UHGV virus genome: UHGV-0123532
Reading direction: 5' to 3' (one strand)
Source: a virus
Length of the DNA stretch: 19,427 nucleotides
Under the pieces are notes generated by a model. It made no database searches. It had not been told where the DNA came from and saw nothing but the letters and a program-made list of their open reading frames with translations. The position numbers were made by a program, and so were the translations under genes. Position 1 is the first letter of the stretch. Every line of letters starts with the position of its first letter. Shown one piece after another: positions 834 through 19,427 of the stretch.

Positions 834-1094
834 TTAATTCTGAGGTAAAGGCAAACTCATCTGATTGTTTCCCCTGTGTGAAGCTGGCAGCTCATGCCAC
901 GGGATACCTTCTGAAGAGTGAACGCCGGAGGTGTGTTTTGATGTGAATTTATGGAAAGCTTCCAGTGTTGAGAAGCATACGCCGCATTCCAGGTTGTTAC
1001 ACTGGTAATACTTTTGCCGCACGGTGTTTGAATCATTTTCCGGACGACTGGTGCGGATACGGGCAGATGCGCCACAAAGCGGACAACGGAACAT
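834..1094 (-). CDS. ogr: Ogr/Delta-family zinc-finger late transcription activator
   Basis: MFRCPLCG...YYQCNNLECGVCF has the CxxC...CxxxxC pattern and resembles P2 Ogr (MFHCPLCQH...YHQCQNVNCSATF); RBS AAGGGAGG 6 nt upstream; lies directly downstream of D as in P2. Confidence 0.8.
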   Translation of the reverse strand: MFRCPLCGASARIRTSRPENDSNTVRQKYYQCNNLECGVCFSTLEAFHKFTSKHTSGVHSSEGIPWHELPASHRGNNQMSLPLPQN

Positions 1095-1136
1095 AGCGAC
1101 CTCCCTTAACGTTGTGCTGCTGCTATTCTAAGTTGC

Positions 1137-2246
1137 TCACTCTGTTTCTGCTATCCATTCCGGGATTTTTGCCTCAAGCTCAAGCTGCGTGGTAAAGCCG
1201 CTGTTATCGATGGTGTGCTCGGCTTTTGCAATAATCCAGTCCTGATTATCAATCTCGCTTTTAAATCCTGTTACCGTGCCATGCATTTCGGGGTAGAGTT
1301 CTGCACGACCACATGCCAGCGTGATGGAGAATGATGCGGCTCCGCGTTGTAGCTGCTGCCACTTTGCCGCCGCTGCGCGTCTTGCTGCCTGCTCGTTCTG
1401 ATAAGTCTTGCGTAACACAAACACATTGCCTTCCGCGCCTTCCATATAATCACCTTCGCGGCTGCTGCTTTTCTCCTTTTTGGGTTTTGGCGGTTTGCGG
1501 TGTTTCACGCTGACTTTTTTCTTTTTCCCGTAATTAAGATCAAGCCAGTAAGCGCGTACCCCCGTATACGCTTCGCGGTCAGCAATGCGGAACTGATGGC
1601 GATCGCCACTGCTGCGCGTGATGGCGAACGATGGCAACGGCTGGCCCTGTGCGTTCACGCCACCGCCTGGCATAATGAATAACAGATTACCGCTTTTTAC
1701 CGTGGTGATTGCGCCCAGCATTTCCGCCATGCGCGTAAGGAAGGACATGTCGCTTTCTTCGGTCTGGTCGGCGTGGTCGATTTCGATATCCATCAGCATT
1801 TCGCTGATTTGCGGTTTCAGACCATACCGATGAGCGATGGCGGATACCACACGCTCAACGGTCACATCATGCCAGGACACCTCACGTTTAACGTTAAATT
1901 CATCCCGAAAATCTGCGCTTCTGGCTGAAACAGTCAGCCTGTCCGGCGGTCCTTCGTGAGCGATTTCATCAACAATGTAAGTGCCTTTTTCTGTCAGCGG
2001 TTCTCCTTTCCAGCCAATGAGAACCGTCAGGCGCGCGCCCCGTGGCGGTAGCTGCAACTGACCATCCGCATCATCCAGCGTGATGGTGAGCTGGTCCGCG
2101 TCAAATCCCCGGTTGTCGGTCAGTGACAGGCTCATCAGGCGCTCTGCCACGCCTGACAGCGTTTTACCCTCCGCGAGAATATCAAAATCCGGCATTTTCA
2201 CGGGGTCTGTGCCCTGACTGAGCAATTGCATGGTGGTATCGGTCAT
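1137..2246 (-). CDS. D: P2 gpD-like tail protein (late gene D), about 370 aa
   Basis: Long ORF from track; start chosen at internal ATG 2244-2246 (MTDTTMQLL...) with GGAGGG RBS; identity by resemblance to remembered P2 gpD and by synteny with ogr. Confidence 0.8.
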   Translation of the reverse strand: MTDTTMQLLSQGTDPVKMPDFDILAEGKTLSGVAERLMSLSLTDNRGFDADQLTITLDDADGQLQLPPRGARLTVLIGWKGEPLTEKGTYIVDEIAHEGPPDRLTVSARSADFRDEFNVKREVSWHDVTVERVVSAIAHRYGLKPQISEMLMDIEIDHADQTEESDMSFLTRMAEMLGAITTVKSGNLLFIMPGGGVNAQGQPLPSFAITRSSGDRHQFRIADREAYTGVRAYWLDLNYGKKKKVSVKHRKPPKPKKEKSSSREGDYMEGAEGNVFVLRKTYQNEQAARRAAAAKWQQLQRGAASFSITLACGRAELYPEMHGTVTGFKSEIDNQDWIIAKAEHTIDNSGFTTQLELEAKIPEWIAETE

Positions 2247-2403
2247 CTGTTCCCTCCCTGTGCGGCATGGTCGCATGTGCGTGCGGAGGGGGTTACTGCT
2301 TTTTGTTGTCGCCGGATCGGGAGAACGGCACAGGGGTGAGATTACGCGCGTGGTGGGTGATGATTGTTGCCGAATCATTTAACGGATACAAGGGGCTAAA
2401 GCT

Positions 2404-3291
2404 ATGAGTGAAACTCGTTTTCATGGTGCCCGTGTTACGGAAAATACCGACCTGGTAACAGCGATTAACGATGTTGATTCCAGCGTTATCGGTATCGTGG
2501 CAACGGCGGATGATGCGGACGCGAAGCTGTTCCCGCTGAACAAGCCCACACTGCTGACCCGCGTCAATGACGTGCTGGGAAAATGCAGGACAACGGGGAC
2601 GCTTTATCGTGCGCTTAAGGCCATCGCAGACCAGGTGAGCACAAAGGTGATCGTCGTTCGCGTGGCTGAACACAAAGAAGAAGACGGAAAGACGCAGGAT
2701 CAACTGGTTATCGGTGGTTCTGAATCTGACGGCAGCTATACGGGGATGTATGCGCTGCTTGTTGCAGAGCAGGATGAAAGCATCGGATACCGTCCGCGTA
2801 TTCTGGCCGCGCCGGAGCTGGACACGGAGGCGGTGACAAAATCCCTGTGCGTGATTGCGGGTAAACTGCGCGCGTTTGTGTATGCCTCATGTCACGGCTG
2901 TAACACGATGGCTGAGGTGATTACCTACCGCCAGAAATTCAACGAACGTGAGGTGATGCTCTTATGGCCGGACTTCATCGCCTACAACCCGAAAAGTGGC
3001 AAAAACGAAACGTTCCCCGCGCCTGCCTATGCGTGCGGCCTTCGTGCGTACATTGACCATGAGCAGGGATGGCACAAATCACTGTCCAACGTTCCGGTTA
3101 AAAATGTGCTGGGGATGTCCAGGCATGTGTTCTGGTCGTTGCAGGCCGAAGACAGCGATGCCAACAGCCTCAACAACAAAGAAATCACGACCATTATTCG
3201 TCGCAACGGGTTCCGCTTCTGGGGCAACCGCACACCGGAAACGAACGCCTACATCTTTGAGGTGTATGCCGGAACATCGGCCAGCGTCTGA
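2404..3291 (+). pseudogene. FI: tail sheath protein FI, C-terminally truncated fragment (295 aa of about 396)
   Basis: Clear collinear similarity to P2 FI (TFPLNKP, LRAF-Y, WPDF-A, EQGWHK-LSNV, LIRR-GFRFWGNRT) ending near P2 residue 300; on the opposite strand to D/L/M/N and converging with the L-like ORF. Confidence 0.75.
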
Positions 3292-3608
3292 TGGCCAGCC
3301 GCCTGCTGTTCCTGCTGCCACGCTTCCAGTTCGCGGGTAACGTGAGCCACGGCCCCAGTGGCGGTATGCAGCAGGCGGGAGGTGGTCACGCGGCCCGGCA
3401 GTCGTACCGCCAGACGCAGCTCGCGCAGCACAATATCCGGCCAGAATGCACCTGCTGAAATGCGAGTGTCGCCATCATCGGTATCGGTGATGTCGTCCTC
3501 TGCGGGTCCTGGTTCAGTTCTGGCAACCATACTCATGGAGTTCACTCCTGAAAAAAAATCGGGCGGTGGGTGCGCGGTGTAAACGGTCACGGAGTCAAAC
3601 CGGAACAC
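3249..3608 (-). pseudogene. putative truncated head completion protein (gpL-like), GTG start
   Basis: Assigned only by position (starts 31 bp after the M stop, as L follows M in P2); its last ~14 codons (3249-3291) are antisense to the FI fragment, so the native reading frame is probably cut at the junction; P2 L is about 169 aa. Confidence 0.3.
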
Positions 3609-3639
3609 CGCGCACGCCGCCCGCTGACGGGGTCAGTCG

Positions 3640-4440
3640 TTAACCGCGCTTCGCCTTCTGCGACGCGGTGGTTTTTCGTGTTGCAGGCTTCTGCGTTGTC
3701 TTTTTACTTTTGCTGCTTTCGTCCTGCGTCTGCTGTGCGCTGGCGTCTTCTGGTGCGGCTGCGGAATCGGCTTTTTTCAGGGCGCGGGAAAGGGTTGCAA
3801 TCTCGCGTTTCACACCTGCGTTCGGGTTCAGGTGCATCGCTTCGCGCAGCAGCTTCAGTGATGAGGCCATGTTGTCTGCATCGGTCAGGCCACGACGGGC
3901 AAAGGCACACGCCTTGCATAATTTGGCGCGCACTTCGTCCGGCATGTCCTGGTTGGCGACAATTTCCCAAAGTGTGTCCAGTGGTTCGATAAAGGCGGAT
4001 AAATCCGCGTCGGCATCCGTCCCGGCCTGCGTCAGTACCGGGTTGCAGATTTCTTCGGTCAGTACCGTGGCAGCAGTACGGCCAAAGTTATCCGGCATGA
4101 TGAGGTTGTGACGGACCACATATGCACCAATACGCAGCGCCAGCGGAAGATCGCCGCAGTCAATCGCCCACACCATCAGCGTGGCAATTACTTCGTCCTG
4201 TTGCCCGCCGTCAGTCTCCAGCGTTCCCTCAATCCAGCCGGAAAAGTCCGGCAACAACTCTTTTTTGATGGCGGCTTTCGCGCTTCTGGCCTGTACGCCC
4301 TTTAGCCTGGCCTGTGCCAGACGCAGACGATACAGCACCTCTTCATGCGCGGTACGCGCGGCGTGGTCCACACCTTCATTCGCCCGGCCTGCGCGCTGTG
4401 CCATCACGTTCTGCCAGTGTTGTTGTGCAGGAGTAATCAT
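3640..4440 (-). CDS. M: terminase small (endonuclease) subunit, gpM-like
   Basis: 266-aa ORF with GGAGAG RBS; similar to remembered P2 gpM (PAQ-H, DMPDEVRAKL, basic Lys/Arg-rich tail); synteny N-M. Confidence 0.8.
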   Translation of the reverse strand: MITPAQQHWQNVMAQRAGRANEGVDHAARTAHEEVLYRLRLAQARLKGVQARSAKAAIKKELLPDFSGWIEGTLETDGGQQDEVIATLMVWAIDCGDLPLALRIGAYVVRHNLIMPDNFGRTAATVLTEEICNPVLTQAGTDADADLSAFIEPLDTLWEIVANQDMPDEVRAKLCKACAFARRGLTDADNMASSLKLLREAMHLNPNAGVKREIATLSRALKKADSAAAPEDASAQQTQDESSKSKKTTQKPATRKTTASQKAKRG

Positions 4441-4457
4441 TTTTTCTCTCCGTTACA

Positions 4458-4476
4458 GGCGGGCATGATGCCCGCC
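4458..4476. other. perfect palindrome/hairpin between N and M (ggcgggcat-g-atgcccgcc)
   Basis: Seen directly; GC-rich 9-bp arms; no U-tract on the minus strand, so more likely an mRNA processing or stability element than a strong terminator. Confidence 0.35.
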
Positions 4477-4485
4477 GTGAGTTGA

Positions 4486-5538
4486 TTAGCTGTCGGCGAA
4501 CTTCAGGCCAGTGATCATCGCGCACTTGCCATAGTCTTCAACGACATAAGCGTCATTGATGGACTGGTAGGTGGCGATGCGGTTGTATTCCGGCTCGTCT
4601 TTCATCAGGCGACGCATTGAACCTTTCTGCCAGTAAATCGACAGGTTGTTGAACGAGGTGATAAGCATCGTTGCATCCGGGAAGAACGGCGCAAGGAACA
4701 CGCCCAGCCCGCCAATGGTGCGCGATGACAGGATGAGCTGCCCGGCAAGTAATTCCGCATTGGGATTCTGGCCGCTGATGCTGTTCAGCACGGGCAGACG
4801 CAGCGAGTTAAACAGGTTGCGCCCCATAATCACCGCGAGGTCGTCAGCTTCCTTGTGCCATTCATCCAGCAGGGATGAGCGCGCATCCTGTACCAGAGCA
4901 TCGGCATTCGCATACTTACCCGCGTGCGCCACAGTGTTGTCCATGTTGCGGGAGGTCAGCGTCACGTCATTCATTACGCGCTCGCTGGCATCGGTTCTGA
5001 TGTGCTCCAGCCAGCCCACGTTAACGTCCTGAAGCAGCTTGTTGGTGTGAAAATCAGACTCGTAGGCGTGGGATGTGCCGTTAAAGCCAATCATGATGCG
5101 ATCAAGCGCTACCTGCCGGGCGATCTGTGTACTGATACGGGACTGAAAATCGCTGTGGGCCGCCCAGGTATCAAGCTGTGGGTACGAAATAAAGGTATCG
5201 TAGTTCACCTGTTCGCACTGGTACTGACGAGACTTCATATCGATCACGTTATTCGGGTTACGGCGTTTGATGCCGTCATAACTGCTATTCGTGCGCGCAA
5301 TTGGCCCGGTGGTGTCCAGGAGGATTTTTTCGCCTTTCTGGTCGGTCACGCCGATCACGTTAATTCTTTTCGTAAATTCGGTACTTTCCTTTGAGGCGTT
5401 TTCAAAACGCTGCTGCACCGCGGGTTCCACGGTAAATCGCGATACCAGTGCAGATACCGGGATATTGTTAAGCGACGCCTGCTGCGCCATATAGCAACCC
5501 AGCTTGTTGCGGGTAATATCTGACATCACCAGATTCAT
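4486..5538 (-). CDS. N: major capsid protein, gpN-like
   Basis: 350-aa ORF; AGGAG RBS 10 nt before ATG at 5536-5538; collinear similarity to P2 gpN (FTVEP, IGFNG, GWL, LSIYW, YVVEDY). Confidence 0.9.
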   Translation of the reverse strand: MNLVMSDITRNKLGCYMAQQASLNNIPVSALVSRFTVEPAVQQRFENASKESTEFTKRINVIGVTDQKGEKILLDTTGPIARTNSSYDGIKRRNPNNVIDMKSRQYQCEQVNYDTFISYPQLDTWAAHSDFQSRISTQIARQVALDRIMIGFNGTSHAYESDFHTNKLLQDVNVGWLEHIRTDASERVMNDVTLTSRNMDNTVAHAGKYANADALVQDARSSLLDEWHKEADDLAVIMGRNLFNSLRLPVLNSISGQNPNAELLAGQLILSSRTIGGLGVFLAPFFPDATMLITSFNNLSIYWQKGSMRRLMKDEPEYNRIATYQSINDAYVVEDYGKCAMITGLKFADS

Positions 5539-6092: not shown

Positions 6093-7844
6093 ATGATTCA
6101 GGACGCTTTTGTGCGCCAGCGTGCGCGGCAACTTTACTGGCAGGGTTATCCGCCCGCAGAAATATCACGTCTGATGGGAATAAACCCGAACACGATTTAT
6201 GCGTGGAAAAAACGCGACCAGTGGGATGAAACGCCACCCGTGCAGCGTGTCACGCAGTCCATCGATGCGCGCCTCATCCAGCTTACTGAAAAACAGAATA
6301 AAACAGGCGGTGACTTTAAGGAAATTGACCTGCTGACCCGGCAGCTTAAAAAAATGCATGATGGCCAGCCGGATGCGACGGCCACAGGAAAGAAAGGCCG
6401 GGCGAAAAAACTCAAAAATCATTTCACGCCGGAACAGATTGCCGCACTGCGGGAAAAAATCATCAGCAGGCTGGAGTGGCATCAGCGGGGCTGGTTTGAC
6501 TCCCTGACCCTTTGCAGGGAAGCCGGGATACGTAACAGGATGATCCTGAAATCCCGACAGATTGGCGCGACCTGGTATTTTGCACAGGAAGCACTGCTGA
6601 TGGCGCTGCGTGACGATGTGGCGCAACCTTACCAGCGTAACCAGATTTTTTTGTCTGCGTCGCGTCGTCAGGCGTTCCAGTTTAAAAGCATTATTCAGAA
6701 GGCTGCGGCTGAAGTTGATGTGGAGCTGAAAGGGGGCGATAAAATCATCCTCTCCAACGGCGCAGAGCTGCATTTTCTCGGCACTTCTGCTGCGTCGGCG
6801 CAGTCCTATACGGGCAATTTTTATTTTGATGAATTTTTCTGGGTCAGTCGCTTTGCTGAACTGCGCAAGGTGGCTGGCGCTATGGCAACCCTCAGCGGAT
6901 TGCGGCGCACCTACTTCTCCACGCCATCCACCGAAACGCACGAAGCATACGCCTACTGGAACGGCGACCGCTGGAACGAGAAAAAGGCCACACATAAACG
7001 CCAGCGTTTTTCTGTGGACTGGAAAACACTGCATAACGGGCTTATCTGCCCTGACCGGACGTGGCGGCAAATTGTCACGCTGGAAGATGTGGTTAATCAC
7101 GGCTGGAAACACACCGATATCGACGAAATTCGTGATGAAAACACCGAAGACGAGTTCCTCAATCTCTATATGTGTGAGTTTGTCCGCGAAGGGGAATCGG
7201 CATTTAACCTGAATATCCTGATTGGCTGCGGTGTTGACGGATACGACGACTGGAAAGACTGGAAACCTTTTGCTCCCCGCCCGATGGGGAATCGTCCGGT
7301 ATGGATTGGGTATGACGCAAACGGCAGCAGTGGCAACGGCGACAGCGGCGCTGTGTCCGTGGTGGTTCCTCCGGCTGTTCCTGGTGGCCGTTTTCGAACG
7401 GTGGAGACGCGACGCGTTCAGGGGCTGGAGTTTGAAGAACAGGCCAGAGTCATTGAAGATTTCACGTATCGCTACAACGTGGAACACATCGGCATTGATG
7501 TGACGGGCGGGAACGGGGAGGCTGTTTATCAGATAGTGAAACGGTTTTTCCCTGCCGCTATTCCGTACACCTTCACGCTGTCATCAAAACGGTCGCTTGT
7601 ACTGAAAATGCTGCAAATAATGCGTGCCGGGCGGTGGGAATACGATCGCGCCGAACGCGAGCTGGTCGCGGCCTTTAACGCCGTGCGTAAGGTGAAAACA
7701 CCGGGCGGCTTTATCACTTACGAAACGGACCGCGCGAGGGGGATCAGCCACGGCGACCTTGCGTGGGCAACCATGCTTGCTGTCATTAACGAACCAATTG
7801 GCGGCGAAGGAGAAAACGAGCGTTTCACGGTTATGGAGTTCTGA
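6093..7844 (+). CDS. P: terminase large (ATPase) subunit, gpP-like
   Basis: 583-aa ORF, length and position match P2 gpP; stop overlaps the Q start (TGATG at 7842-7846). Confidence 0.85.
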   Translation: MIQDAFVRQRARQLYWQGYPPAEISRLMGINPNTIYAWKKRDQWDETPPVQRVTQSIDARLIQLTEKQNKTGGDFKEIDLLTRQLKKMHDGQPDATATGKKGRAKKLKNHFTPEQIAALREKIISRLEWHQRGWFDSLTLCREAGIRNRMILKSRQIGATWYFAQEALLMALRDDVAQPYQRNQIFLSASRRQAFQFKSIIQKAAAEVDVELKGGDKIILSNGAELHFLGTSAASAQSYTGNFYFDEFFWVSRFAELRKVAGAMATLSGLRRTYFSTPSTETHEAYAYWNGDRWNEKKATHKRQRFSVDWKTLHNGLICPDRTWRQIVTLEDVVNHGWKHTDIDEIRDENTEDEFLNLYMCEFVREGESAFNLNILIGCGVDGYDDWKDWKPFAPRPMGNRPVWIGYDANGSSGNGDSGAVSVVVPPAVPGGRFRTVETRRVQGLEFEEQARVIEDFTYRYNVEHIGIDVTGGNGEAVYQIVKRFFPAAIPYTFTLSSKRSLVLKMLQIMRAGRWEYDRAERELVAAFNAVRKVKTPGGFITYETDRARGISHGDLAWATMLAVINEPIGGEGENERFTVMEF

Positions 7845-8890
7845 TGAGCAGAAAAAATAAAAAAGTGCGCATGAGTTCACGCATTGATCTCGCTGATGCA
7901 CTCAGGAAAGAATCGTCGCTCAGTGCATTCACTTTTGATGGTCCTTATCGCCTGACCGGGCATGATTTGCTGGACAATATGTACTGTGCTGATAACGGGC
8001 GGTGGTATGAAACCCCGGTGGACTGGTACGGTCTGGCAAGAGCCGCCCGGCAAACGTCCTGGCATCAGTCTGCGCTTTACTTTAAGCGCAATGTATTGCT
8101 CGGTTGCTACATCCCGCACCCGCTGCTTTCCCGGCAGGATTTCTCGGCACTGGCGCTGGACTGGTTTGTGTTCGGTAACGCATTCCTTGAGCTTCGAAGC
8201 AATATGCTCGGCGAACCGCTTAAATTACGGCACGCCCTGGCGAAATACATACGACGCGGAAGCGATCTTGAATCATGGTGGTATGTGCAGGATGGCAAGG
8301 ATGCGTTCCAGTTTCGCCCTGGCAAAGTGTGCCACCTGATGAATCCTGACATTAACCAGGAAATCTACGGCATGCCGGAATATCTCGGCGCATTACTCTC
8401 GGCCAGCCTGTCTCATTCGGCGGACATGTTCAGAAAACTGTATTACGACAACGGATCCCACGCCGGGTGCATCATCTACATCGGTGCAGCGCAGGTAAAC
8501 CGCGAAAGCATGGACTCTCTGAAAGAAACGCTACAGGGTGCACGTGGTGGCGGTGCGTTTAAAAACGTGCTCATTCATGCGCCCAACGGGGGCAAAGAGG
8601 GGGTGCAAATTTTGCCGTTCCAGCAGATCACCGCAAAGGATGAGTTCATGAATGTTAAGGCGGCATCCCGTGATGATGTGCTGGCTGCGCACCGCGTTCC
8701 GCCGCAACTAATGGGGGCGATGCCGGGTGAAAAAAGTGCGTTTGGTGATGTGGAGAAGGCCGCGCGGGTTTACGCAATTAACGAGCTGATGCCCATCATG
8801 GAGGCCATGAAGCACATCAATGACTGGCTTGGCGAAGAGGTGATCCGCTTTAACCCTTACGCACTGTTAGATACCCAGCTCACATCCTGA
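7844..8890 (+). CDS. Q: portal (capsid vertex) protein, gpQ-like
   Basis: 348-aa ORF translationally coupled to P; length and position match P2 gpQ. Confidence 0.85.
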   Translation: MSRKNKKVRMSSRIDLADALRKESSLSAFTFDGPYRLTGHDLLDNMYCADNGRWYETPVDWYGLARAARQTSWHQSALYFKRNVLLGCYIPHPLLSRQDFSALALDWFVFGNAFLELRSNMLGEPLKLRHALAKYIRRGSDLESWWYVQDGKDAFQFRPGKVCHLMNPDINQEIYGMPEYLGALLSASLSHSADMFRKLYYDNGSHAGCIIYIGAAQVNRESMDSLKETLQGARGGGAFKNVLIHAPNGGKEGVQILPFQQITAKDEFMNVKAASRDDVLAAHRVPPQLMGAMPGEKSAFGDVEKAARVYAINELMPIMEAMKHINDWLGEEVIRFNPYALLDTQLTS

Positions 8891-8940: not shown

Positions 8941-9220
8941 GACTCTCCAGCTCCTGTATCAGTCAGATAATTTCACGACGCTTTACAGTATATCGCCACC
9001 ATCGACGGTCAGACTCTTACGCAATCCCACCGCGTTGACTGCATGTTCTTCGCCGCCTCAGTGCGATTTTGACGGCCTTACCTTTCACCCCATCAAATCA
9101 GAATCCCTCACGTATTTTTCACGCTCAGCGTGAGAAATACAGCCATTCTGTTGTGTCTCTGCGACATCGTTCAGGGAATGCTATTTACCCCCTGAAACGC
9201 GGGCTGTTCCCCCGTCACCT

Positions 9221-9272
9221 GCGCGCAGAAAAAACGCGTTTTTTTGTGCATGCACGGATCCTTGACGGATCC
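9221..9272. repeat. dense cluster of short palindromes
   Basis: GCGCGC (9221-9226), AAAAAACGCGTTTTTT (9229-9244), GTGCATGCAC (9246-9255), GGATCC twice (9256-9261, 9267-9272), all seen directly. Confidence 0.6.
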
Positions 9273-9315
9273 AGCCGCCACGCGGGCCGGAAGGGTAAAA
9301 AGTCGTTCAAAAAAA

Positions 9316-9345
9316 TTGTGCAAATTTGTGCACTATTGTGCAAAC
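9316..9345. repeat. three tandem copies of TTGTGCA at exact 10-bp period
   Basis: tTGTGCAaat / tTGTGCActa / tTGTGCAaac at 9316, 9326, 9336; helical-turn phasing suggests a protein-binding array. Confidence 0.55.
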
Positions 9346-9581
9346 CGAACGGAGTGCTTATTTATAGAAAAATTGAGCCTATGTATACGACGTTGCTTAT
9401 AAATACATCCCTGACTGTTATGTGAAAATATGCAAAGAAAATTACATGCTATGGAGATGAGAGTTATAACGACCTTTTCTACTTATTTGTAAAAGAGGTC
9501 GTTATGTAAAAGTTAAATTATTTTTTACTCTTGATATGTGTAAAAAATATAGCTTTGATGTTTATATCCTATTAGAATATA

Positions 9582-11279
9582 TTATTTATCCTCTTTAATG
9601 ATTTTGTTATAGTCAAAATCCCAAATTTTTCTGTCAATGCCGTTTGTTGGTGTAACCCGGTAGAATAAGGATCGTAATCCATTGTAAAAATACTGGAGAG
9701 ATTTCTGATTTTCTGGTTTGTCTAACCAGTTTCTTGTAATCATTCTAAAGAATTCAATATGCTGATTGAATATTTTCTTATTTAATTTTCTTCTTAAACC
9801 GGATGTAGACTCATGGTTGTCTTTTCTTTTCTGAATTTCAGTTTCAATTGATTGTAATTGAGGACGTATCTTGAGTAAGTATAACTCTTTCGAAAAACCA
9901 TTGTTAATTATATCCTGATTTTCCCAGAAGGAAGAGTCGTCGGTATTATAAAGGTGCTCACAATGCTCAAATATCAATTGTTCTGGAGCTTTTTCACCCG
10001 GCAGTGATATAATTCCTCTCTGATCCTCAGGGCTGTGATCTCCATCAAGAATACAAATTGATTTTAACGAGGTTTCCTTAAGATGAGAATCATTAAAAAT
10101 AGTTTTTAAATTGTCTGCACCAATGAAACAATCAATTAAGTGAAATGAATTACTAACTATAGCAAAATTTGGATATTTGCTTATCCAATAACCAAGTATT
10201 TCATTAAATAAAAAGCGAGCTTCTTCATCTTCCGTGAAAACTGGTATCTTGTTCCTTGTGTATATCTCATCCTTTGTTTGTGTTTTCAGATACATTGTTA
10301 TTTTTAATATATCAGGATTATCCAAAAGCAGAGCCTTTGTAATATTGTTAATTAGATAGACAACATGGTATTTTTTATGAAAAGCATATTCTAGCAATGT
10401 CAGACTGTGCGTTGTGAAAAATACTTGAATCTTATAATCTTTTGCGTATTGATAAATTTTATCTAATAATCTTATCTGTAAAGAAGGATGTAAAGTGGCA
10501 TCAAATTCATCTATTAACAGAATGCTTTCTTTTTGATCAGTGGATTGAATAAGTGATTCAAAATAATACCTAAGGCTAACTAATGCCTTGATTATAATGA
10601 ATATATTGTCTTCCCCGGATGATATGGTATTAGAATCAATTGCTGGGTTATCGGTATCAAATAATGGGCCAGCTTTAAAATCTCCGATATTGTTTGATTC
10701 TATATTTATAATATTAATGCCCAAAAGTTCATTATATATTTTCGATATATAACCAACATACTCTTCTGGTAGGTTTAACGGAATTTTTGTAAGGGCGTCG
10801 TCTTTAGTTTCACCAATTGGGAATAGTCGCGATAATCCAAGATATAAAACTGGTTTAGCTGGAAGTGATTGTTTTTCTTTTCCGCGTGGGTATACTGGTT
10901 TGATAGCATACCGTTGCGCTTCGTCTGGATTTTTTGAGTTGTGCTTTCTGAAGTCTAGTGTGCTATGATCCAAATAGTTAATAGAAAATAACACACCTTT
11001 TGTTCCCTCTGCCGGATCGGTGTAATTTTTTGATTCCCTAACAATTGCTTCCATTTTGGGGTTGGCTATTTTGTTTATAGATTTTATAACTCTAACACAA
11101 TTACTATTTGAATAATTTTGTGATCGAGATGGTGGCATTTGGAAACCATTGCTAATTAAATGAAGCAATGTTGTCTTACATGTCCCATTGGTTCCTGATA
11201 TTATATTGATGTCTTCATTGAATGAGAAGTCAATATCTATCAGTTTCTTAAATTTTTTAAAACTAATTTCTTTAATCAT
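9582..11279 (-). CDS. OLD-family ABC-type ATPase with C-terminal Toprim-like nuclease region (565 aa)
   Basis: N-terminal P-loop SGTNGTCKTTLL; Walker B/D-loop LLIDEFDATLHP and H-loop FFTTHS typical of AAA_15/AAA_21 OLD-like ATPases; downstream conserved acidic motifs VFTEDEE and ILDGDHS spaced like the Toprim Glu and DxD; AGGA RBS; AT-rich. Confidence 0.6.
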   Translation of the reverse strand: MIKEISFKKFKKLIDIDFSFNEDINIISGTNGTCKTTLLHLISNGFQMPPSRSQNYSNSNCVRVIKSINKIANPKMEAIVRESKNYTDPAEGTKGVLFSINYLDHSTLDFRKHNSKNPDEAQRYAIKPVYPRGKEKQSLPAKPVLYLGLSRLFPIGETKDDALTKIPLNLPEEYVGYISKIYNELLGINIINIESNNIGDFKAGPLFDTDNPAIDSNTISSGEDNIFIIIKALVSLRYYFESLIQSTDQKESILLIDEFDATLHPSLQIRLLDKIYQYAKDYKIQVFFTTHSLTLLEYAFHKKYHVVYLINNITKALLLDNPDILKITMYLKTQTKDEIYTRNKIPVFTEDEEARFLFNEILGYWISKYPNFAIVSNSFHLIDCFIGADNLKTIFNDSHLKETSLKSICILDGDHSPEDQRGIISLPGEKAPEQLIFEHCEHLYNTDDSSFWENQDIINNGFSKELYLLKIRPQLQSIETEIQKRKDNHESTSGLRRKLNKKIFNQHIEFFRMITRNWLDKPENQKSLQYFYNGLRSLFYRVTPTNGIDRKIWDFDYNKIIKEDK

Positions 11280-11296
11280 CTATATCATCCTTAAAT

Positions 11297-12142
11297 TTAA
11301 ATGTCAGGGATTTTTATACCATGATTATAAATGATAATTTCTAGACCTTTTTTCTTATCTTGTGCAGTATAATTAAGCGTATAATCAGTCATATTGAATT
11401 CATGATATATGCTTTTTATTTCAGGCACATTGTCATAAGACACAACCCAAGGTAGTTGAATTTCCCGTAGTGTATTAGCGATTTTTACATGATCATCATG
11501 TTTATAAAAATTTCTATATAACTCTGCTCCTTTAACATAATAAGGTGGATCAAGATATATTAGACTATTTTGGGGTAGCAATGCTTTTTGGTGTAGCAGA
11601 AAATCTACAGCATCAAAATTCGATACGTAAATTTTCTCCTTATATGCACCAATTAGTTCAATCCTTTTAATTAACTCTTTTTTGTTGAATCTTGCATCTA
11701 ACTTCCATGGTCCTTTTTGTTCTTTCCCTCCAATAACGCCAGCCTTAAGTATTCCTGAACGGTTTGTTCTATTTAAAAAGAAAGTAGATAATGCGACTTC
11801 AAGCATACTATATTTATCATTGTTTAGGAGTATCTCCTTTTGAGTATGCCAATTTTCAATAGTCACAGGAACTTCATCAATCATTTCACATAACAGATCG
11901 TTATGATTAACCACTGCAAACCAAAAAGAATAAAGGGCAGGATCAATATCATTTATGAAGATATTTTCAACAAGACCGTTAAGGAGCAAACCTAATGCTA
12001 CACCGGCTCCACCTGCATAAGGTTCAGCATAACATCCACCAATGAGATCATTGTTGCGGAGTATTTGTTCAATATGTGGCAAGAATTTTGCCTTACCTCC
12101 CGGATAACGAAGAGGGGTTCTAAAATGAGAAGGCTTTGTCAT
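11297..12142 (-). CDS. Dam-like (D12 class) N6-adenine DNA methyltransferase (281 aa)
   Basis: LRYPGGK N-terminal motif, AdoMet motif EPYAGGAGV, catalytic DPPY; stop lies 17 bp upstream of the ATPase start, same strand. Confidence 0.85.
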   Translation of the reverse strand: MTKPSHFRTPLRYPGGKAKFLPHIEQILRNNDLIGGCYAEPYAGGAGVALGLLLNGLVENIFINDIDPALYSFWFAVVNHNDLLCEMIDEVPVTIENWHTQKEILLNNDKYSMLEVALSTFFLNRTNRSGILKAGVIGGKEQKGPWKLDARFNKKELIKRIELIGAYKEKIYVSNFDAVDFLLHQKALLPQNSLIYLDPPYYVKGAELYRNFYKHDDHVKIANTLREIQLPWVVSYDNVPEIKSIYHEFNMTDYTLNYTAQDKKKGLEIIIYNHGIKIPDI

Positions 12143-12229
12143 CCACGATTTTCTCAGTAAAAAATAAACATAATCTTAACATGGCACTTGAGTTTTCCCG
12201 ATAAAAAACATCGTCGCCGTCCATAGATA

Positions 12230-12247
12230 TTTGCATAGTTATGCAAA
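12230..12247 (-). promoter_or_regulatory. inverted repeat TTTGCATA-gt-TATGCAAA in the leader of the methyltransferase operon
   Basis: Perfect 8-bp arms seen directly; located between the predicted promoter and the MTase start, an operator-like or 5' UTR hairpin position. Confidence 0.4.
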
Positions 12248-12275
12248 AAATCCAGTTTTCAATGAATTAAGGGGA

Positions 12276-12305
12276 ATTATATCAATTGCATTCTATTCAA
12301 CACAA
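12276..12305 (-). promoter_or_regulatory. candidate sigma70 promoter for the MTase-OLD operon
   Basis: Minus strand TTGTGT-N18-TATAAT (perfect -10 at 12276-12281, -35 at 12300-12305), immediately after the gene A stop. Confidence 0.35.
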
Positions 12306-12327
12306 TATTCGGTTAGCGATTCACATC

Positions 12328-15153
12328 TCATCCCTCATGATGGAAAAGGCATATCCAACTTTGTAATTGTTTTTTCTCATCATCATTTTGATTACTAAAG
12401 TGCTGTTTGCCTCTCTTTTGGAGCAAAGTAGCCTTGCGGCGGGCGCGTTCAGTGGTTTCATTGATTCTTTGTGCGTGCTCTGCGTCACGGATGGCGCGCA
12501 GCATGTCAGAAAGCACGGTAACGGGGGTTTTCATGGTGTTCTGGTCCTGCTGAAGTGTGGATGCCAGACGTGCGGCGGCTTCGGGGTCTGATGCCCCCAG
12601 TTGTTCCAGATAGCTGGCGACCGGGTTATGACGGATCTCTGTGCTGCTTACGCCGTGATTACGGCTCAGGCGCTGCCAGAGCTGCGTAATTCGGCTGGCC
12701 GGGCGGGTATCCGGTTTGCGTACAATTTCAAATCCCTGCGGTGCAATGATGCTGCCGTCAACGTACAGGCTGCCGCCCCGTAACAGGTGCTGCATCTGCT
12801 GTTCACCGATATGCAGGCCGAGAGATTCGGCAGATTCCCGCCATTCTTTAGCGAGTAATTCGTGGTTATCAGGCAAAGGCCGCTGCTGTTTGCGGCTCTG
12901 TGTCCAGCTCTGCATTTCATCACTGCTGTTTTTTGCCTGTTTGTCACGAAGCGAACGCATCAGCGCCCGGCGTTCGTGCCGTTTCAGTGAGCGCATCCAT
13001 TCGTTCACTTCAACGCCGTCAGGAAGCTGCGGCCACGGTGCTGGCCGTTCTTTCGACTGTTCTGTCCCGCTGTTGCCTGTTTCCTGTACACGGGGACAGT
13101 TATTGCCACGAGTCCAAGGGGCGGCAGGGCCGCCCTGAAGGTCAAAACCATTTTCGCGGGCGCTGTCTTCCGCTTCCGGTTTGCGTCTTACCAGCTTCCA
13201 GTTATCCGGATGCGTGCACACACGGGAGGATTCCCCGATGAGTGGTGACCAGATCCCGTAAATCTGTACGCTCTGTTCGCCGTAATCGTTCAGCTCATCG
13301 GCGAGGTCGTAGGCGGTGCGAATCAGGTAGTCTTTGCGTGGAACAAGTACGCCGCCCTGTTTCTCAATGTAGGTGGCAAAACATCCGGCATCAGCGGCAG
13401 CAAGAACCGCATCCATTGCGTCATCCTTCAGCCGTTGCGGGCCTTCCGGGTTGCGTGCCATCTGGCTGGCAAGGCGACGCAGTTCACGCCACACCTGACG
13501 GGAGGGGATGCCAAAGAACTGGAACTGGCGGACCCGGTGAAGGCGCGCCCAGCCAATGGCGCGTTCCACGCTCTCGGTCATTGATTTTCCGGTTTCGTGG
13601 TCAACGCGTGGTTTGCCTGTTTTCGGGTCGATGCCATCCACGGCGCGGCTGTCCAGGTTTTTTCCGATGTAGGTGGCGATGTAGCTGGTTGGCGTGCCTT
13701 TTGAGCCGTCGACATACTCCGCCTTAAAGCGCGGAGTAATATCATCGCCCAGCTCGTGACGATCTTCCTGAATGGCAATATCGCGGGTGTGGGACACAAT
13801 GGTGTCGATTTCTTCCGGATGAGCAAAGACCATCATATGCCAGTGCACGGTGCCGTCATGGTGAGGCTCCACCGTGCGGATGCCATACCAGCGCAGGCCG
13901 TCGCGGTTCAGTTTCTTGCGGACCGCCGCAAAAAACGTGTTAACCAGGTAATCGCTGGAGTCGCGCATGGTGGCCCCGTTCCATTTGGGATTCGGATGAC
14001 CGTTCTCTGTTGTAGCGTGGTATTTTGACGGGCAGGTGACAGTCAGAAACACCGCTTTGTCGCCACGGGCTTCGGCCAGAAGTTCCAGCCCCTTCATGGT
14101 GGCCATCATTTCTGCCTTACGGTGAACCGGGTTACTTACTCCCGCGTAATACACTGTCTCGAGATCAATCGTGAACCCGTCTTCGTTTTCCAGCATGAAA
14201 CTTTTCAGGAAATCGCGTGTTTTCTCGCGCTGTGCGCGAAACTCGCTTAACGCGTCCTGGCTCAGATAGGGCGATGTTTTTCTGGAAACCAGACAGGCGG
14301 CGCGGAGTTGTTCTTCTCTCCACTCGCAACGTAACAGCCACAGTTTGCGTTTCCACCATTCCGCACAGGTCAGGCGAAGGATTGCGCCCGGCAGCAGCTC
14401 CGTGTCCGGTTCGTTCCTCCGGTCTTTGTCTGTTGTCAGTGCGTCATAATGTGGAGGCATGGCGTGCAGGTGTAACGCCATGCGGGCCAGCATCTGATAC
14501 GCCTTCAGCGTTACATCCATGGTCAGTTCGCCATCGGTCGCGCCAAAGCCATCGCAGAGTTTTTCGAAGGTGCTGCTGAACATCGCCGCCGTCATGGTGG
14601 CCAGCGTCTGTATCTGGTGTTTGTTGAGCTGCGGCAGGTAAAGCAAATCGTCCAGGCGTTCGCGTCCGGCAAGGGAGCGATAACCCTGTGTCAGCCAGCG
14701 GTGATCGGTGCGCTCCAGACGTTCGAATATTTTGCGCAGGTTTCCGCGCGCGTAGCGTTCAGCCTGCCAGCTCTTTTTGCCTTTCTGACGATCGGCTTCC
14801 TGTTTTTTGCGCAGGAAGGAGAGGTGGCGAATAAGCGGATCGCGCAGATAGGACGGCAGCAGGCGCAGCGAGGCCATGGCTTCATCCACCGCACCGCGTG
14901 CCTGTTTTCTGGCGTCTCCTGCCAGTGTGATGGTTTTGTCCTGTTTTTCCTGTGCGTCCAGGCTTTTATTAATCAGGTTGCCCAGCGGCGTTGCGGAGAA
15001 CGCCGCATCAGCCATTTCCTGGCGGCGCTCGTTCTCTACCCGGTAGGCATCCAGCCAGGAGGAAAGCGCGGATTCAGGAGCGGGGATCCCCGTTCCTTCA
15101 CGCCCCACTGCGTGGCGCGGTTGTTGCCAGTCCCTGATGTACTCTGCCGTCAT
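12328..15153 (-). CDS. A: replication initiation endonuclease, gpA-like (rolling-circle HUH type), 941 aa
   Basis: HUH-type motif TVHWHMMVF and paired tyrosines YIATYIGK characteristic of P2 A-family proteins; position after the early operon. Confidence 0.85.
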   Translation of the reverse strand: MTAEYIRDWQQPRHAVGREGTGIPAPESALSSWLDAYRVENERRQEMADAAFSATPLGNLINKSLDAQEKQDKTITLAGDARKQARGAVDEAMASLRLLPSYLRDPLIRHLSFLRKKQEADRQKGKKSWQAERYARGNLRKIFERLERTDHRWLTQGYRSLAGRERLDDLLYLPQLNKHQIQTLATMTAAMFSSTFEKLCDGFGATDGELTMDVTLKAYQMLARMALHLHAMPPHYDALTTDKDRRNEPDTELLPGAILRLTCAEWWKRKLWLLRCEWREEQLRAACLVSRKTSPYLSQDALSEFRAQREKTRDFLKSFMLENEDGFTIDLETVYYAGVSNPVHRKAEMMATMKGLELLAEARGDKAVFLTVTCPSKYHATTENGHPNPKWNGATMRDSSDYLVNTFFAAVRKKLNRDGLRWYGIRTVEPHHDGTVHWHMMVFAHPEEIDTIVSHTRDIAIQEDRHELGDDITPRFKAEYVDGSKGTPTSYIATYIGKNLDSRAVDGIDPKTGKPRVDHETGKSMTESVERAIGWARLHRVRQFQFFGIPSRQVWRELRRLASQMARNPEGPQRLKDDAMDAVLAAADAGCFATYIEKQGGVLVPRKDYLIRTAYDLADELNDYGEQSVQIYGIWSPLIGESSRVCTHPDNWKLVRRKPEAEDSARENGFDLQGGPAAPWTRGNNCPRVQETGNSGTEQSKERPAPWPQLPDGVEVNEWMRSLKRHERRALMRSLRDKQAKNSSDEMQSWTQSRKQQRPLPDNHELLAKEWRESAESLGLHIGEQQMQHLLRGGSLYVDGSIIAPQGFEIVRKPDTRPASRITQLWQRLSRNHGVSSTEIRHNPVASYLEQLGASDPEAAARLASTLQQDQNTMKTPVTVLSDMLRAIRDAEHAQRINETTERARRKATLLQKRGKQHFSNQNDDEKKQLQSWICLFHHEG

Positions 15154-16936: not shown

Positions 16937-17353
16937 CTATGCGTGAAATACGGCACGTTGCGCGTCATCAATGAATACAGCTTGAGATCGTTCTATCAGG
17001 CGGAGATTTGTCAGAAGCTCTGACTCTTTTGTGTGGTAAGGCGTTATCAGGTAGTTGCCGTGCAGTTCGGCAATAATGGTGTATTGCGTCATTATTGCCG
17101 AACCAAGAATGTAAATGCGGCGTCCAATGCTGGACGGATTCATGGCTGCAACTGTTGACTGTGTTTTAAGAGTGTCGATTTCTTTGCCCTGTTCCTCAAT
17201 AATTTTGGCTGCTTCAGAGGTGGCTATTGCGATGGTCAGTGCGTAAAGCGCTGCCATATGTTGATTATCTTTCTGGGCTGCCCTGGACAGCTTGTCTTGC
17301 TCTGCTGACACTATTTTTAATGTATTGATAATATTTTTTTCTTTTGCGTTCAT
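16937..17353 (-). CDS. hypothetical early-operon protein (138 aa), possibly a gpB analogue
   Basis: ORF with GGAG RBS; assignment to B is positional only. Confidence 0.45.
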   Translation of the reverse strand: MNAKEKNIINTLKIVSAEQDKLSRAAQKDNQHMAALYALTIAIATSEAAKIIEEQGKEIDTLKTQSTVAAMNPSSIGRRIYILGSAIMTQYTIIAELHGNYLITPYHTKESELLTNLRLIERSQAVFIDDAQRAVFHA

Positions 17354-17445
17354 TTTATATCTCCGTTATTTACGTGTGCGAATACCTCCGCGAATGCGGA
17401 TAGTTTTCAGGTTTTCGGGTTTAATCTGGTGTTTTGTTTAAGCTA

Positions 17446-17559
17446 TTATTTGTCAGTGAAAAAGCGTTCAATCTTTTTTACTGAATGAATAATTCGCATA
17501 ATCCCAATGGCGCAGGCCACCGAAATAATCAGAACAAGCCATGAGATAAATATACTCAT
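17446..17559 (-). CDS. small single-TM peptide, 37 aa (MSIFISWLVLIISVACAIGIMRIIHSVKKIERFFTDK)
   Basis: Hand-translated; its ATG overlaps the stop of the upstream 80-aa gene as ATGA; hydrophobic core followed by a basic tail. Confidence 0.4.
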   Translation of the reverse strand: MSIFISWLVLIISVACAIGIMRIIHSVKKIERFFTDK

Positions 17560-17798
17560 GCGATATTCCCCAGCTTATACGGTTCAATGTGTTCCCCGCA
17601 TTCTGCGGCACAGATCAGCTCGGAAAGTTCGTTCAGTGCATCCAGATCATCAGCGTAAAAAGCAACGTCATACAAACTCCGGATTGCCCTGGTCAATGAG
17701 TCACGGGCTGCATGTTCAGCATGAGCGCCTGATGCACTTAAGCGAAAATAAAATCGTTCAAGTGCTTTGTTAATGAGAGTTTTATATTCTTTGCCCAT
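17556..17798 (-). CDS. hypothetical early-operon protein (80 aa)
   Basis: ORF from track; AAAGGG upstream. Confidence 0.5.
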   Translation of the reverse strand: MGKEYKTLINKALERFYFRLSASGAHAEHAARDSLTRAIRSLYDVAFYADDLDALNELSELICAAECGEHIEPYKLGNIA

Positions 17799-17809
17799 CG
17801 CAACGCCCT

Positions 17810-18088
17810 TTAATCTGCTTTCTGAATTTCAGCTTCTGAATCCATACAAATAATTTCGATATAGGGTTCATCGCCATTAACCTGACGTGCCTTTTCAGCT
17901 TCGCTAATGATTTCTCGTACGGTCTGGTACGGAAGCTCCACAGTCAGGCGCGTACCGTTCAGATAAACGTAAGTAGCTGCGTTTTTTTCGGATGGAACAA
18001 CTCCGTCAATGGCTGATGCGCGTAATAACAGTTCACCGCGAAAATCAATAAAACGGATAAATACACCTTGTGCATGCTCTTTGGTCAT
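17810..18088 (-). CDS. hypothetical early-operon protein (92 aa from internal ATG)
   Basis: Start moved to ATG at 18086-18088 (AGGTG RBS), which removes overlap with the upstream gene. Confidence 0.5.
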   Translation of the reverse strand: MTKEHAQGVFIRFIDFRGELLLRASAIDGVVPSEKNAATYVYLNGTRLTVELPYQTVREIISEAEKARQVNGDEPYIEIICMDSEAEIQKAD

Positions 18089-18098
18089 AAAGCACCTG

Positions 18099-18449
18099 TT
18101 ATAAATCAGCCTGTTTAATAAAACTTTGCCCGCGAAGCAGACGATCAACCGTGCGAAGTGCTTCGTATAATGTGAAATCCTGCCCGAAGTGATTGTCGCC
18201 GCAGTTCAATGCAAAAATGCGGTTTCCGGTAAACGGATTGCGTGGGCATTTGTGGACCACGATTCCAGCTTTCTCAATCAGCCAGGCATGCTCGCCGATT
18301 TGTTTTACAGCGTGGCCATCCGGTGTTGCGTGCGTCTCGTTCAGGTTATAGCGACTGTTACTACGTGATGCACTGGTAGCGACGTGGTGTACATGGCGTT
18401 CTACGCCATTACGAAATTTGGAGTATGGATTATTAGCGTTTTTTTTCAT
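18099..18449 (-). CDS. hypothetical early-operon protein (116 aa)
   Basis: ORF from track in operon context. Confidence 0.5.
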   Translation of the reverse strand: MKKNANNPYSKFRNGVERHVHHVATSASRSNSRYNLNETHATPDGHAVKQIGEHAWLIEKAGIVVHKCPRNPFTGNRIFALNCGDNHFGQDFTLYEALRTVDRLLRGQSFIKQADL

Positions 18450-18470
18450 GATGGTGCTCTGTTCATTGTT

Positions 18471-18674
18471 TTAGCTGTTAGCCAAAGCGTCTTTTAACAT
18501 CGCCACAAGGTTTACTTCAGGCTTTTCCATTTTGGCGCGTTTGGGGCGGATAATAATTCGACCGTCAGCCAACATCTTTTTGCATGTATTAAGAGGGATA
18601 CCTGTTATCTCTGCATATTTCTGCAGGGATACATAGGGGGCATTCACATTGATATTGATGGTTATACCTGACAT
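18471..18674 (-). CDS. cox: Cox-like small HTH protein (putative excisionase/switch regulator)
   Basis: APYVSLQKYAEITGIPLNTCKKMLADGRI resembles the P2 Cox N-terminal region (AIPYQEFAKLIGKSTGAVRRMIDKGKL) as remembered; early-operon position. Confidence 0.5.
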   Translation of the reverse strand: MSGITININVNAPYVSLQKYAEITGIPLNTCKKMLADGRIIIRPKRAKMEKPEVNLVAMLKDALANS

Positions 18675-18690
18675 CCCACTAGCCTCCTGA

Positions 18691-18897
18691 TCAGGAAGAT
18701 TTGTTTTGTTCTTTCTGGGTTAGCTCTAGGCCGCGAAGGAAGATCATGCGCGCCATGTTAGAGGATGAGCGTTGTTCTTTAGCTGCCATTTCATCAATGA
18801 CGGCTCGCTCCTCGAGGGACAGCCGAAGTGCCAGTCTTGGACCTGTGGCGGTGTTACGCGGAATGCGTGATCTGGTATCGTGAAGAACTTGTTTCAT
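18691..18897 (-). CDS. ribbon-helix-helix-like small regulator, first gene of the early operon
   Basis: PRLALRLSLEERAVIDEMAAKE is an Arc/CopG-like RHH signature; no strong RBS. Confidence 0.45.
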   Translation of the reverse strand: MKQVLHDTRSRIPRNTATGPRLALRLSLEERAVIDEMAAKEQRSSSNMARMIFLRGLELTQKEQNKSS

Positions 18898-18934
18898 AGT
18901 GGTATATTGTGATCATCTAATAGCTCGTGAAATC

Positions 18935-18963
18935 ATTTTGGTATCAAAAAAGATACCTGTCAA
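18935..18963 (-). promoter_or_regulatory. early (lytic) promoter with operator palindrome in the spacer
   Basis: Minus strand TTGACA (18958-18963) - 17 nt - CAAAAT (18935-18940); the spacer is the inverted repeat GGTATC-AAAAAA-GATACC (18940-18957). Confidence 0.5.
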
Positions 18964-18972
18964 GGTTTTTGT

Positions 18973-19377
18973 ATGAAAAATGATATTGGTCAGCGGTTGC
19001 GTGAGGAAAGGGAAAGATTGGGACTTAGTCAAGTTGCCATGAGCGACATTGGTGGAGTCAAAAAGCTAACTCAGCTTAGATATGAGAAAGGAGATAGCTT
19101 TCCTGATGCTGCGTATTTGGCAGCGCTGTCTCGTTTTGGCCTTGATGTTCAGTATGTTGTGTTGGGAATTCACTCACCTGAAACTTATAACGATGATGAG
19201 CAGGAGTTGATTACTCGCTTTCGAGCAGCTTCGTTAGATGTGAAAAACGCGGTGATTGGGGCTTTAAAAGGTGCGATCAGTGAAAAGGAAACTCAGCCAT
19301 CAGGACGTGAGTTAAATATTTCTGGTGGTAAAAACCGTATCGCTGGTCGTGACTATAACGAAACTAAGGGTAGGTGA
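18973..19377 (+). CDS. XRE-family HTH transcriptional repressor (immunity repressor, C-like)
   Basis: N-terminal HTH QRLREERERLGLSQVAMSD; transcribed divergently from the early operon. Confidence 0.7.
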   Translation: MKNDIGQRLREERERLGLSQVAMSDIGGVKKLTQLRYEKGDSFPDAAYLAALSRFGLDVQYVVLGIHSPETYNDDEQELITRFRAASLDVKNAVIGALKGAISEKETQPSGRELNISGGKNRIAGRDYNETKGR

Positions 19378-19392
19378 TAGTAGGGAGGTGAC

Positions 19393-19427
19393 ATGGCCGT
19401 CAACTCAAACGGTTCAAACAATCGCGT
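19393..19427 (+). CDS. 5' end of an ORF running off the window (MAVNSNGSNNR...)
   Basis: ATG at 19393 preceded by GGGAGGTG; only 11 codons visible. Confidence 0.3.
   Translation, partial: MAVNSNGSNNR

Follow-up and report, generated by a model that had tools for sequence, protein, structure and literature searches.

An AT-rich methylase–ATPase cassette in the anti-phage slot of a P2-family prophage, a putative methylation-gated defence module

The virus genome UHGV-0123532, of which we analysed a stretch of 19,427 nucleotides (hereafter the window), is a P2-family prophage with a strongly AT-rich stretch between its portal gene Q and its replication gene A. We found that this stretch is a horizontally acquired two-gene cassette residing in a known defence slot of P2-type phages. 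The cassette encodes a D12-class adenine methyltransferase of the PD-λ-5_B type and a 565-aa ATP-binding cassette (ABC) ATPase with a probable C-terminal Toprim domain of the OLD/AriB/HEC-04 kind. By its sequence relationships it is a relative of the PD-λ-5 defence system with a different effector swapped in. We think it reasonably likely that the pair forms a methylation-gated nuclease module, preferably of a restriction–modification (RM)-like kind, that would exclude competing phages.

Composition, edges and genomic slot of the segment

In a 400-nt sliding profile, GC content fell from about 0.49–0.56 to 0.28–0.37 over ~9300–12400 and then rose to 0.58. The limits of the segment, 9343–12430, are the positions at which similarity to related phages is lost and regained. 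Within these limits the GC content is 32.1%, against 52.8% in the remainder of the window. Among the 204 other windows of the same length (3,088 bp), the lowest value was 46.3% and the highest 57.1% (mean 53.8, sd 2.7), and the segment lies ~8 sd lower. GC at third codon positions is 0.27 in the ATPase gene and 0.23 in the methylase gene, compared with 0.58–0.69 in the phage genes. An earlier sequence-only reading had described an AT-rich island from about 9350 to the stop codon of gene A; the compositional contrast is as it had described, and the discontinuity proved to be a sharp step, well outside chance variation.

The edges were fixed by blastn against P88 (L012) and phage 503458 (L013), where homology stops at 9342/9345 and restarts at 12431. 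The left edge of that earlier reading thus lies at most 7 nt from the break, whereas its right edge, placed at the gene A stop (12328), had to be moved to 12430, inside gene A. The C-termini of the A proteins of the window and of P88 have ...RKA(T/D)LL in common and diverge completely afterwards; therefore, cargo is exchanged in this hotspot at a junction within the coding sequence of A, and a separate A tail comes with each cargo. Two intact open reading frames (ORFs), both on the minus strand, make up the cargo (Table 1). A 118-aa ORF with a TTG start (9069–9425, plus strand) overlaps both the cos region and the edge of the island; it crosses the homology break and the GC step and is almost certainly not a gene.

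The slot could be established from the flanks. To the left are found the genes for the small terminase, a P2-type capsid protein, the large terminase (6093–7844, plus strand) and the portal protein Q. In megablast searches the flanks were those of P88-type Peduoviridae (Xuanwuvirus: P88, 520873, 503458 and Shae_phiSM) at 95–97% identity, and coverage was confined to the flanks alone, 23% of the query. Between the matching flanks these four phages carry ParM/partition genes, and ParM with partition proteins is the most frequent cargo at these flanks. The gene order of P2 is A–orf91–tin–old–cosR, and the segment occupies the corresponding position between gene A and the portal gene with its cos-like site. 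The cargo is co-directional with gene A, whereas old and tin of P2 are not. The cos-like 19-mer, which has the same sequence in P88, is assigned tentatively, because the exact P2 cos 19-mer had no match in the window at three or fewer mismatches.

The P2-family slot was previously known as a hotspot of anti-phage genes (PMC9122126, PMC9519451), and four of the defence systems of Vassallo et al. (2022) came from it. The same flanks were present in 1,451 of 5,426 complete Escherichia coli genomes, and 15 of these genomes carried the two-gene cargo, always between these flanks. In all 15 the near-identical copies lie in the slot of a P2-type prophage, and 14 IMG/VR contigs have them too; among deposited phage isolates, none carried a close homologue of the 565-aa ATPase. 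E. coli NCTC9008 has a canonical PD-λ-5 in this slot, in a different P2-like prophage (L011). Over 25% of complete E. coli genomes contain P2-type prophages, whose cos-proximal slot has been proven to store anti-phage systems. By homology and context, the cargo of the present prophage may exclude phages as well.

Two further proposals of the sequence-only reading could be upheld, namely the P2 old/tin position and the horizontal acquisition of the genes, and the check that it named, swapping of cargo at conserved flanks, came out positive (ParM/partition genes in relatives, PD-λ-5 in NCTC9008). What the cargo encodes was not part of that reading. Distant homologues are carried by integrase islands, an integrative and conjugative element (ICE) and prophages. 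Conserved non-phage chromosomal contexts were not encountered: close copies occurred in this slot alone and distant ones in mobile elements.

The two genes and their linkage across genomes

The methylase matched the PADLOC model PD-Lambda-5_B with 404 bits (E 8.7e-122), the canonical PD-λ-5_B of NCTC9008 scoring 403 bits, and the two methylases are 52% identical. Its AdoMet (EPYAGGAG) and catalytic (DPPYY) motifs are intact, and its sole relative of solved structure is 7m6b (E 1.5e-17). As is required of an RM-type unit, a methyltransferase with intact motifs stands 17 nt from the gene of a putative nuclease; a spacing of 18 nt was observed in the Salmonella, Klebsiella and Morganella islands. 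A putative extended −10 element (12284–12276) precedes the methylase gene by 130 nt, and a hairpin downstream of the ATPase gene is a likely terminator. A scan with consensus promoters and terminators performed no better than on shuffled sequence and did not list the putative promoter. The cassette is an operon that probably has a promoter of its own, the methylase being transcribed first and the ATPase second.

The 565-aa protein has the Pfam AAA_15/AAA_21 signatures. In an alignment of 40 homologues (45–83% identity), Walker A (G29–K35), the ABC signature (S220/G222/E223/D224), Walker B (D257/E258) and H291 were invariant, and so were E350, D351, E353, R355, D412-G413-D414 and P432-E433 in the C-terminal half. 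Thus, as in the OLD family, the N-terminal part of the protein is an ABC-type ATPase that carries both Walker motifs and the signature. Among the best 25 of its 103 PADLOC matches, the top profiles were defence ATPases throughout (HEC-04, PtuA, ATPase-Toprim_I-B, AriAB/AriA and GajA), all generic at ~55 bits. The best, HEC-04, gave 58 bits over residues 249–444 of 565. The C-terminal domain alone gave 27 bits (E 3.4e-7) against HEC-04, residues 343–445 aligning to profile positions 312–409, and this alignment covers the E...DxD site. HEC-04 is a validated single-protein ABC ATPase–Toprim defence for which E319, D375 and D377 are essential (Payne et al. 2024 preprint). Structural matches of the 565-aa protein include AriA and AriB, and its ATPase head resembles those of Smc and Rad50; neither a coiled-coil insertion nor a kleisin-type partner is present.

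A profile of the C-terminal domain retrieved nothing from the PDB sequences, and against 1.84 billion representative proteins the best 150 matches listed were its own family alone (319 clusters); thus it offers no bridge to the annotated Toprim or DUF4435 families. We regard the Toprim assignment as probable rather than established, because Pfam, hhalign, Foldseek and the latter profile search gave no firm match. A distant relative was noted in Citrobacter phage phiNP (OR565852, L095), where a 595-aa 'AAA family ATPase' (2860–4647) lies beside the integrase gene with no adjacent methylase. Its C-terminal domain matched the cassette ATPase family with an hhalign probability of 94%, the FEDKE and LDGD motifs included, and an adenine methyltransferase is encoded ~2 kb upstream of it, separated from it by the exonuclease, xis and int genes.

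We compared ~130 loci, comprising 80 genomic loci and 47 viral contigs. The ATPase family occurs in Enterobacterales, many Clostridia and Bacilli, Haemophilus, Neisseria, Streptococcus, Collinsella, Brachyspira and one archaeal metagenome-assembled genome (MAG), its hosts thereby spanning Firmicutes, Proteobacteria, Actinobacteria, Spirochaetes and the archaeal MAG. A methylase of the same subfamily was found within 450 bp of the ATPase in 66 of the 80 genomic loci; eight of the others end at a contig edge and the rest have the methylase 0.4–4 kb away. The two genes were adjacent (at most 450 bp apart) in 44 of the 47 viral contigs, and in every locus with room the distance was at most 4.5 kb. 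Most phyla have the order ATPase→methylase and Enterobacterales the order methylase→ATPase, and convergent pairs also occur. The linkage of methylase and ATPase is therefore obligatory.

The composition of the pair is nevertheless fluid. In some loci the gene between ATPase and methylase is a PD-λ-5_A homologue (103–893 bits). Such a homologue lay within 3 kb in 17 of the 80 genomic loci, in four arrangements and including near relatives of the cassette in Pantoea and a Clostridium MAG, and in none of the 47 viral contigs. Methylases from loci with and without this third gene interleave (78–81% identity across types, for example), which indicates that the ParB/HEPN gene was gained or lost repeatedly. 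The divergences of ATPase and methylase were weakly correlated (Spearman 0.28), and we observed discordant pairs, with ATPases 78% identical beside methylases 44% identical, or methylases ~80% identical beside ATPases ~42% identical. Thus, the partners have been re-assorted and yet are always linked. Decay was one-sided: at least two to three loci (L076, L089 and possibly L050) combine an intact methylase with a truncated ATPase, while among ~120 loci none had a disrupted methylase beside an intact ATPase.

In 62 of 64 loci the module was lower in GC than its flanks (mean −9.3 points), and therefore its AT-richness travels with it. Its mobile contexts include integrase islands in Pantoea, Salmonella and Klebsiella, an E. 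coli ICE and a prophage region of Desulfosporosinus. In a Morganella island it is accompanied by ScoMcrA-HNH, Mrr_cat and CbtA/CbeA, AAA_15+DUF3696 is among its defence-island neighbours, and in a Rhizobium island HerA and AbiTii lie near the ATPase homologue. The order there and in Pseudorhizobium (L062/L063) is D12 methylase, HerA-like DUF87 protein, a 532-aa protein, ATPase and AbiTii protein; this island may represent a more complex relative of the two-gene system. The Salmonella and Klebsiella islands (L006, L007, L008, L144, L145; 4289–5002) have a conserved 237-aa ORF between integrase and methylase, which had no Pfam match and, in the one locus tested by tblastn (L006), no remnant of PD-λ-5_A; it could be an accessory gene.

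Proposed function and competing explanations

From these comparisons we infer a defence function, a nuclease activity, its gating by methylation and its target. We propose that the PD-λ-5_B-type methylase would mark the DNA of the lysogen as self, and that the ABC-ATPase/Toprim-like protein would be a nuclease gated by this mark and unsafe without the methylase. In the preferred version, this protein would act as the restriction subunit of an ATP-dependent RM system, attacking incoming unmethylated DNA, and competing phages would thereby be excluded by the lysogen. The cassette would be a sibling of PD-λ-5 in which the ParB/HEPN effector has been replaced by an ABC–Toprim effector. We favour the RM-like version because the two-gene form is in the majority, the methylase is never lost or broken and the decay is asymmetric, and because the sibling PD-λ-5 pairs the same methylase with an unrelated nuclease.

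Several observations weigh against this proposal. The characterised ABC–Toprim defence proteins (Old, PARIS, HEC-04 and GajA) sense infection or act as abortive effectors and are not restriction enzymes sensitive to methylation, and a nuclease that reads the site of the methylase should co-diverge with it more closely than was observed. Neither the 565-aa protein nor its C-terminal fragment matched Pfam Toprim or DUF4435, the latter (PF14491) giving no match on the fragment even at E ≤ 10. With the C-terminal domain, hhalign found nothing in the Toprim domain of P2 Old, and a Foldseek search of the PDB with its model returned nothing significant. PADLOC v2 names no system for the pair, the 565-aa protein receiving generic ATPase matches only.

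The first two of these observations would be accommodated by the main rival, a guard or abortive infection (Abi) mechanism of the PARIS/PrrC type, which we judge possible although somewhat unlikely. Here, the methylase or its methylation would be a guarded bait monitored by the ATPase, and an anti-restriction factor (Ocr, S-adenosylmethionine lyase) would release the Toprim nuclease on tRNA or DNA, resulting in death or growth arrest. Obligatory linkage is predicted by this mechanism as well as by the RM-like one, and it is the trigger that differs. Every characterised OLD-type ABC+Toprim defence protein works as a sensor and suicidal effector, OLD-ABC/Toprim modules are reported to be pervasively recruited beside methylation-based systems (PMC12839542, PMC9122126), and the structural matches of the ATPase to AriA and AriB point in the same direction. 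The weak co-divergence suits a sensor that does not read the DNA site of the methylase. In the 17 loci with a complete PD-λ-5 (A+B) the ATPase might serve as a backup layer, and Vassallo et al. termed PD-λ-5 itself a compacted 'RM+Abi' system. However, the dominant two-gene form has no primary restriction nuclease to back up, and it would be unusual for a pure bait to show zero disrupted copies in ~120 loci. Moreover, the DUF4435 signature is absent, and the autonomous relatives (Old, HEC-04 and fused PARIS) need no methylase.

It is improbable that the two genes function independently, as an orphan methylase (for protection of prophage DNA or tuning of expression) beside a stand-alone OLD-like exclusion ATPase. 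Orphan Dam-like methylases are common on phages, P2 old is a stand-alone ABC–Toprim protein in the same slot, and the distant phiNP relative has no immediately adjacent methylase. Against these stand a linkage kept across phyla, four gene orders and repeated re-assortment, a partner that is always of the same methylase subfamily, and an operon-like spacing of 17–18 nt. A non-defence role, with the ATPase as an SMC/RecF-like factor of DNA maintenance or partition and the methylase as an epigenetic one, would agree with the usual ParM and partition cargo at these flanks and with the Smc- and Rad50-like head, but is very improbable given the missing coiled-coil insertion and kleisin-type partner, the invariant acidic E...DxD site in the C-terminal half, the best profile matches (all defence ATPases), the homologues in defence islands and the proven defence role of the sibling PD-λ-5. 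That linkage holds across phyla and gene orders makes both of these explanations unlikely.

If the cassette does encode a methylation-gated nuclease, the range of known restriction enzymes would be extended, and a gene pair that current defence finders leave unannotated, or presumably would call an incomplete PD-λ-5, would be accounted for. We put forward a broader generalization more tentatively: the PD-λ-5_B-type methylase could be a shared self-mark or specificity subunit with interchangeable effectors (ParB/HEPN, ABC-ATPase/Toprim or both). The two-gene form might then be an unrecognised class of ATP-dependent RM system with an OLD-like ABC–Toprim restriction subunit, or else a minimal combination of bait methylase and guard nuclease directed against the anti-restriction factors of rivals. 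The comparative data offer a testable picture of such modular exchange of effectors around one methylase family.

Remainder of the prophage and comparison with known systems

The coordinates of the cassette and of its surroundings are collected in Table 1.

Table 1. Features of the cassette and its flanks in the window.
Feature	Position	Strand	Basis
Portal protein Q, left conserved flank	7844-8890	+	Pfam Phage_portal; 96-97% nt identity to P88
cos-like 19-mer GGTGACGGGGGAACAGCCC (tentative; context, not cargo)	9201-9219	-	13/19 identical to P2 cosR 19-mer; ~125 bp from island edge
Swapped AT-rich cargo segment, 3,088 bp	9343-12430	no strand	blastn break points and GC statistics
Hairpin, 17-nt arms 88% complementary, 6-nt loop (likely terminator)	9466-9505	no strand	inverted-repeat search; 77 nt past ATPase stop
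ABC-type (OLD/SMC-like) ATPase, 565 aa, with C-terminal Toprim-like nuclease domain (~340-445; probable) and helical tail	9582-11279	-	profile and alignment
Operon junction spacer, 17 nt, AAGGA Shine-Dalgarno before ATPase start codon	11280-11296	-	sequence
D12-class (alpha) N6-adenine DNA methyltransferase, 281 aa, first operon gene	11297-12142	-	Pfam MethyltransfD12 E 1.3e-20
Putative cassette promoter, TTGTGT, 18-nt spacer, extended -10 TGaTATAAT	12276-12305	-	read by eye
Cargo-linked 3' end of replication gene A, about 32-34 codons, 35% GC	12328-12430	-	homology break 12430/12431
Replication endonuclease gene A, full ORF (conserved part 12431-15153)	12328-15153	-	Phage_GPA E 4.5e-131; 96% nt identity to P88

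Outside the cassette, the prophage is defective. Next to gpD (1137–2378, minus strand) lies a tail-sheath fragment of 295 aa in the opposite orientation (2404–3291, plus), and directly after this come a truncated head-completion region and the small terminase gpM (3640–4440, minus). Relative to the intact prophage of AR_0013, the window lacks ~15.7 kb of lysis and tail genes. E. coli AST46 (L143, NZ_AP043639.1 2051960–2084336) is 100% identical to window positions 1–4500 and to the cassette. It carries a ~32.7-kb Mu-like prophage (Mu transposase, Gam, Mor, Com/Mom) within the P2-type major capsid gene; the capsid gene of the window (4486–5538) is intact, and the window therefore stems from a related genome that lacks this insertion. 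A second, milder GC dip (0.40–0.48) at 17000–19427 and 1–400 corresponds to the early/immunity end, which holds small ORFs and a helix-turn-helix repressor-like gene (18973–19377).

Among known systems, the cassette comes nearest to PD-λ-5, an experimentally validated 'ParB/HEPN + methyltransferase' system of 2,461 bp from ECOR7 that gives broad protection (Vassallo et al. 2022). A Δmrr host was needed for its cloning, implying that its non-Dam adenine methylation is active. The pair in NCTC9008 measures 2,460 bp; against the PD-λ-5 models its A component reached 558 bits and its B component 403 bits. The methylase subfamily, the P2-family hotspot, the compact two-gene form, the AT-richness and the mobility are common to both, and the three-gene loci physically unite PD-λ-5 with the methylase–ATPase pair. 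They differ in the effector: PD-λ-5_A is a ParB/HEPN protein of ~500 aa, whereas that of the cassette combines an ABC ATPase and a Toprim-like domain. BLASTP of the 565-aa protein against the canonical PD-λ-5_A of NCTC9008 showed no similarity (E 1.1), tblastn of five PD-λ-5_A proteins revealed no remnant of A in the window, and PD-Lambda-5_A was not among the 25 best PADLOC matches. As B is 52% identical and A is unmatched, the cassette shares the methylase family of PD-λ-5 and has another effector. We therefore rejected its assignment to PD-λ-5 proper, component A being absent and the partner unrelated.

The ATPase resembles HEC-04 in having an ABC ATPase followed by a C-terminal Toprim-like domain and in matching over the essential E...DxD site. 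However, the similarity is weak and partial, and HEC-04 works alone, embedded in Hma systems, while the cassette ATPase is coupled to a methylase; the 565-aa protein shows neither a full-length match to the HEC-04 profile nor a stand-alone gene. P2 Old, a class 1 OLD protein, aligned by hhalign in the Walker B region alone. It matches Pfam OLD-like_TOPRIM, which the 565-aa protein does not, it has no methylase partner and it is transcribed in the opposite orientation relative to gene A. An orthologue of P2 Old was thus rejected on the limited alignment and the null C-terminal comparison. PARIS has no dedicated methylase, and its AriAB/AriA profiles matched with ~54 bits over ATPase motifs alone; membership in PARIS or fused AriAB was rejected, since DUF4435 is absent and the ATPase matches are generic.

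With classical RM systems of Type II/III logic, the cassette has in common that a methylase and a putative nuclease are inherited together as closely linked mobile genes, with the methylase first in Enterobacterales and a decay asymmetry favouring its retention. In contrast, the putative nuclease has no PD-(D/E)xK, HNH or GIY-YIG fold and no helicase motor. An ABC ATPase with a Toprim-like domain is not known as a restriction subunit. The pair was described in none of the papers found in a search that lay outside the ABC ATPase classification of Krishnan et al. (2020) and REBASE, and the accession WP_001581118 was not mentioned in the literature found. The cassette brings together, in one mobile pair, the methylation-based marking of self and non-self known from RM systems and PD-λ-5 and a probable ABC-ATPase–Toprim effector of the kind that appears in OLD, PARIS, Gabija and HEC-04.

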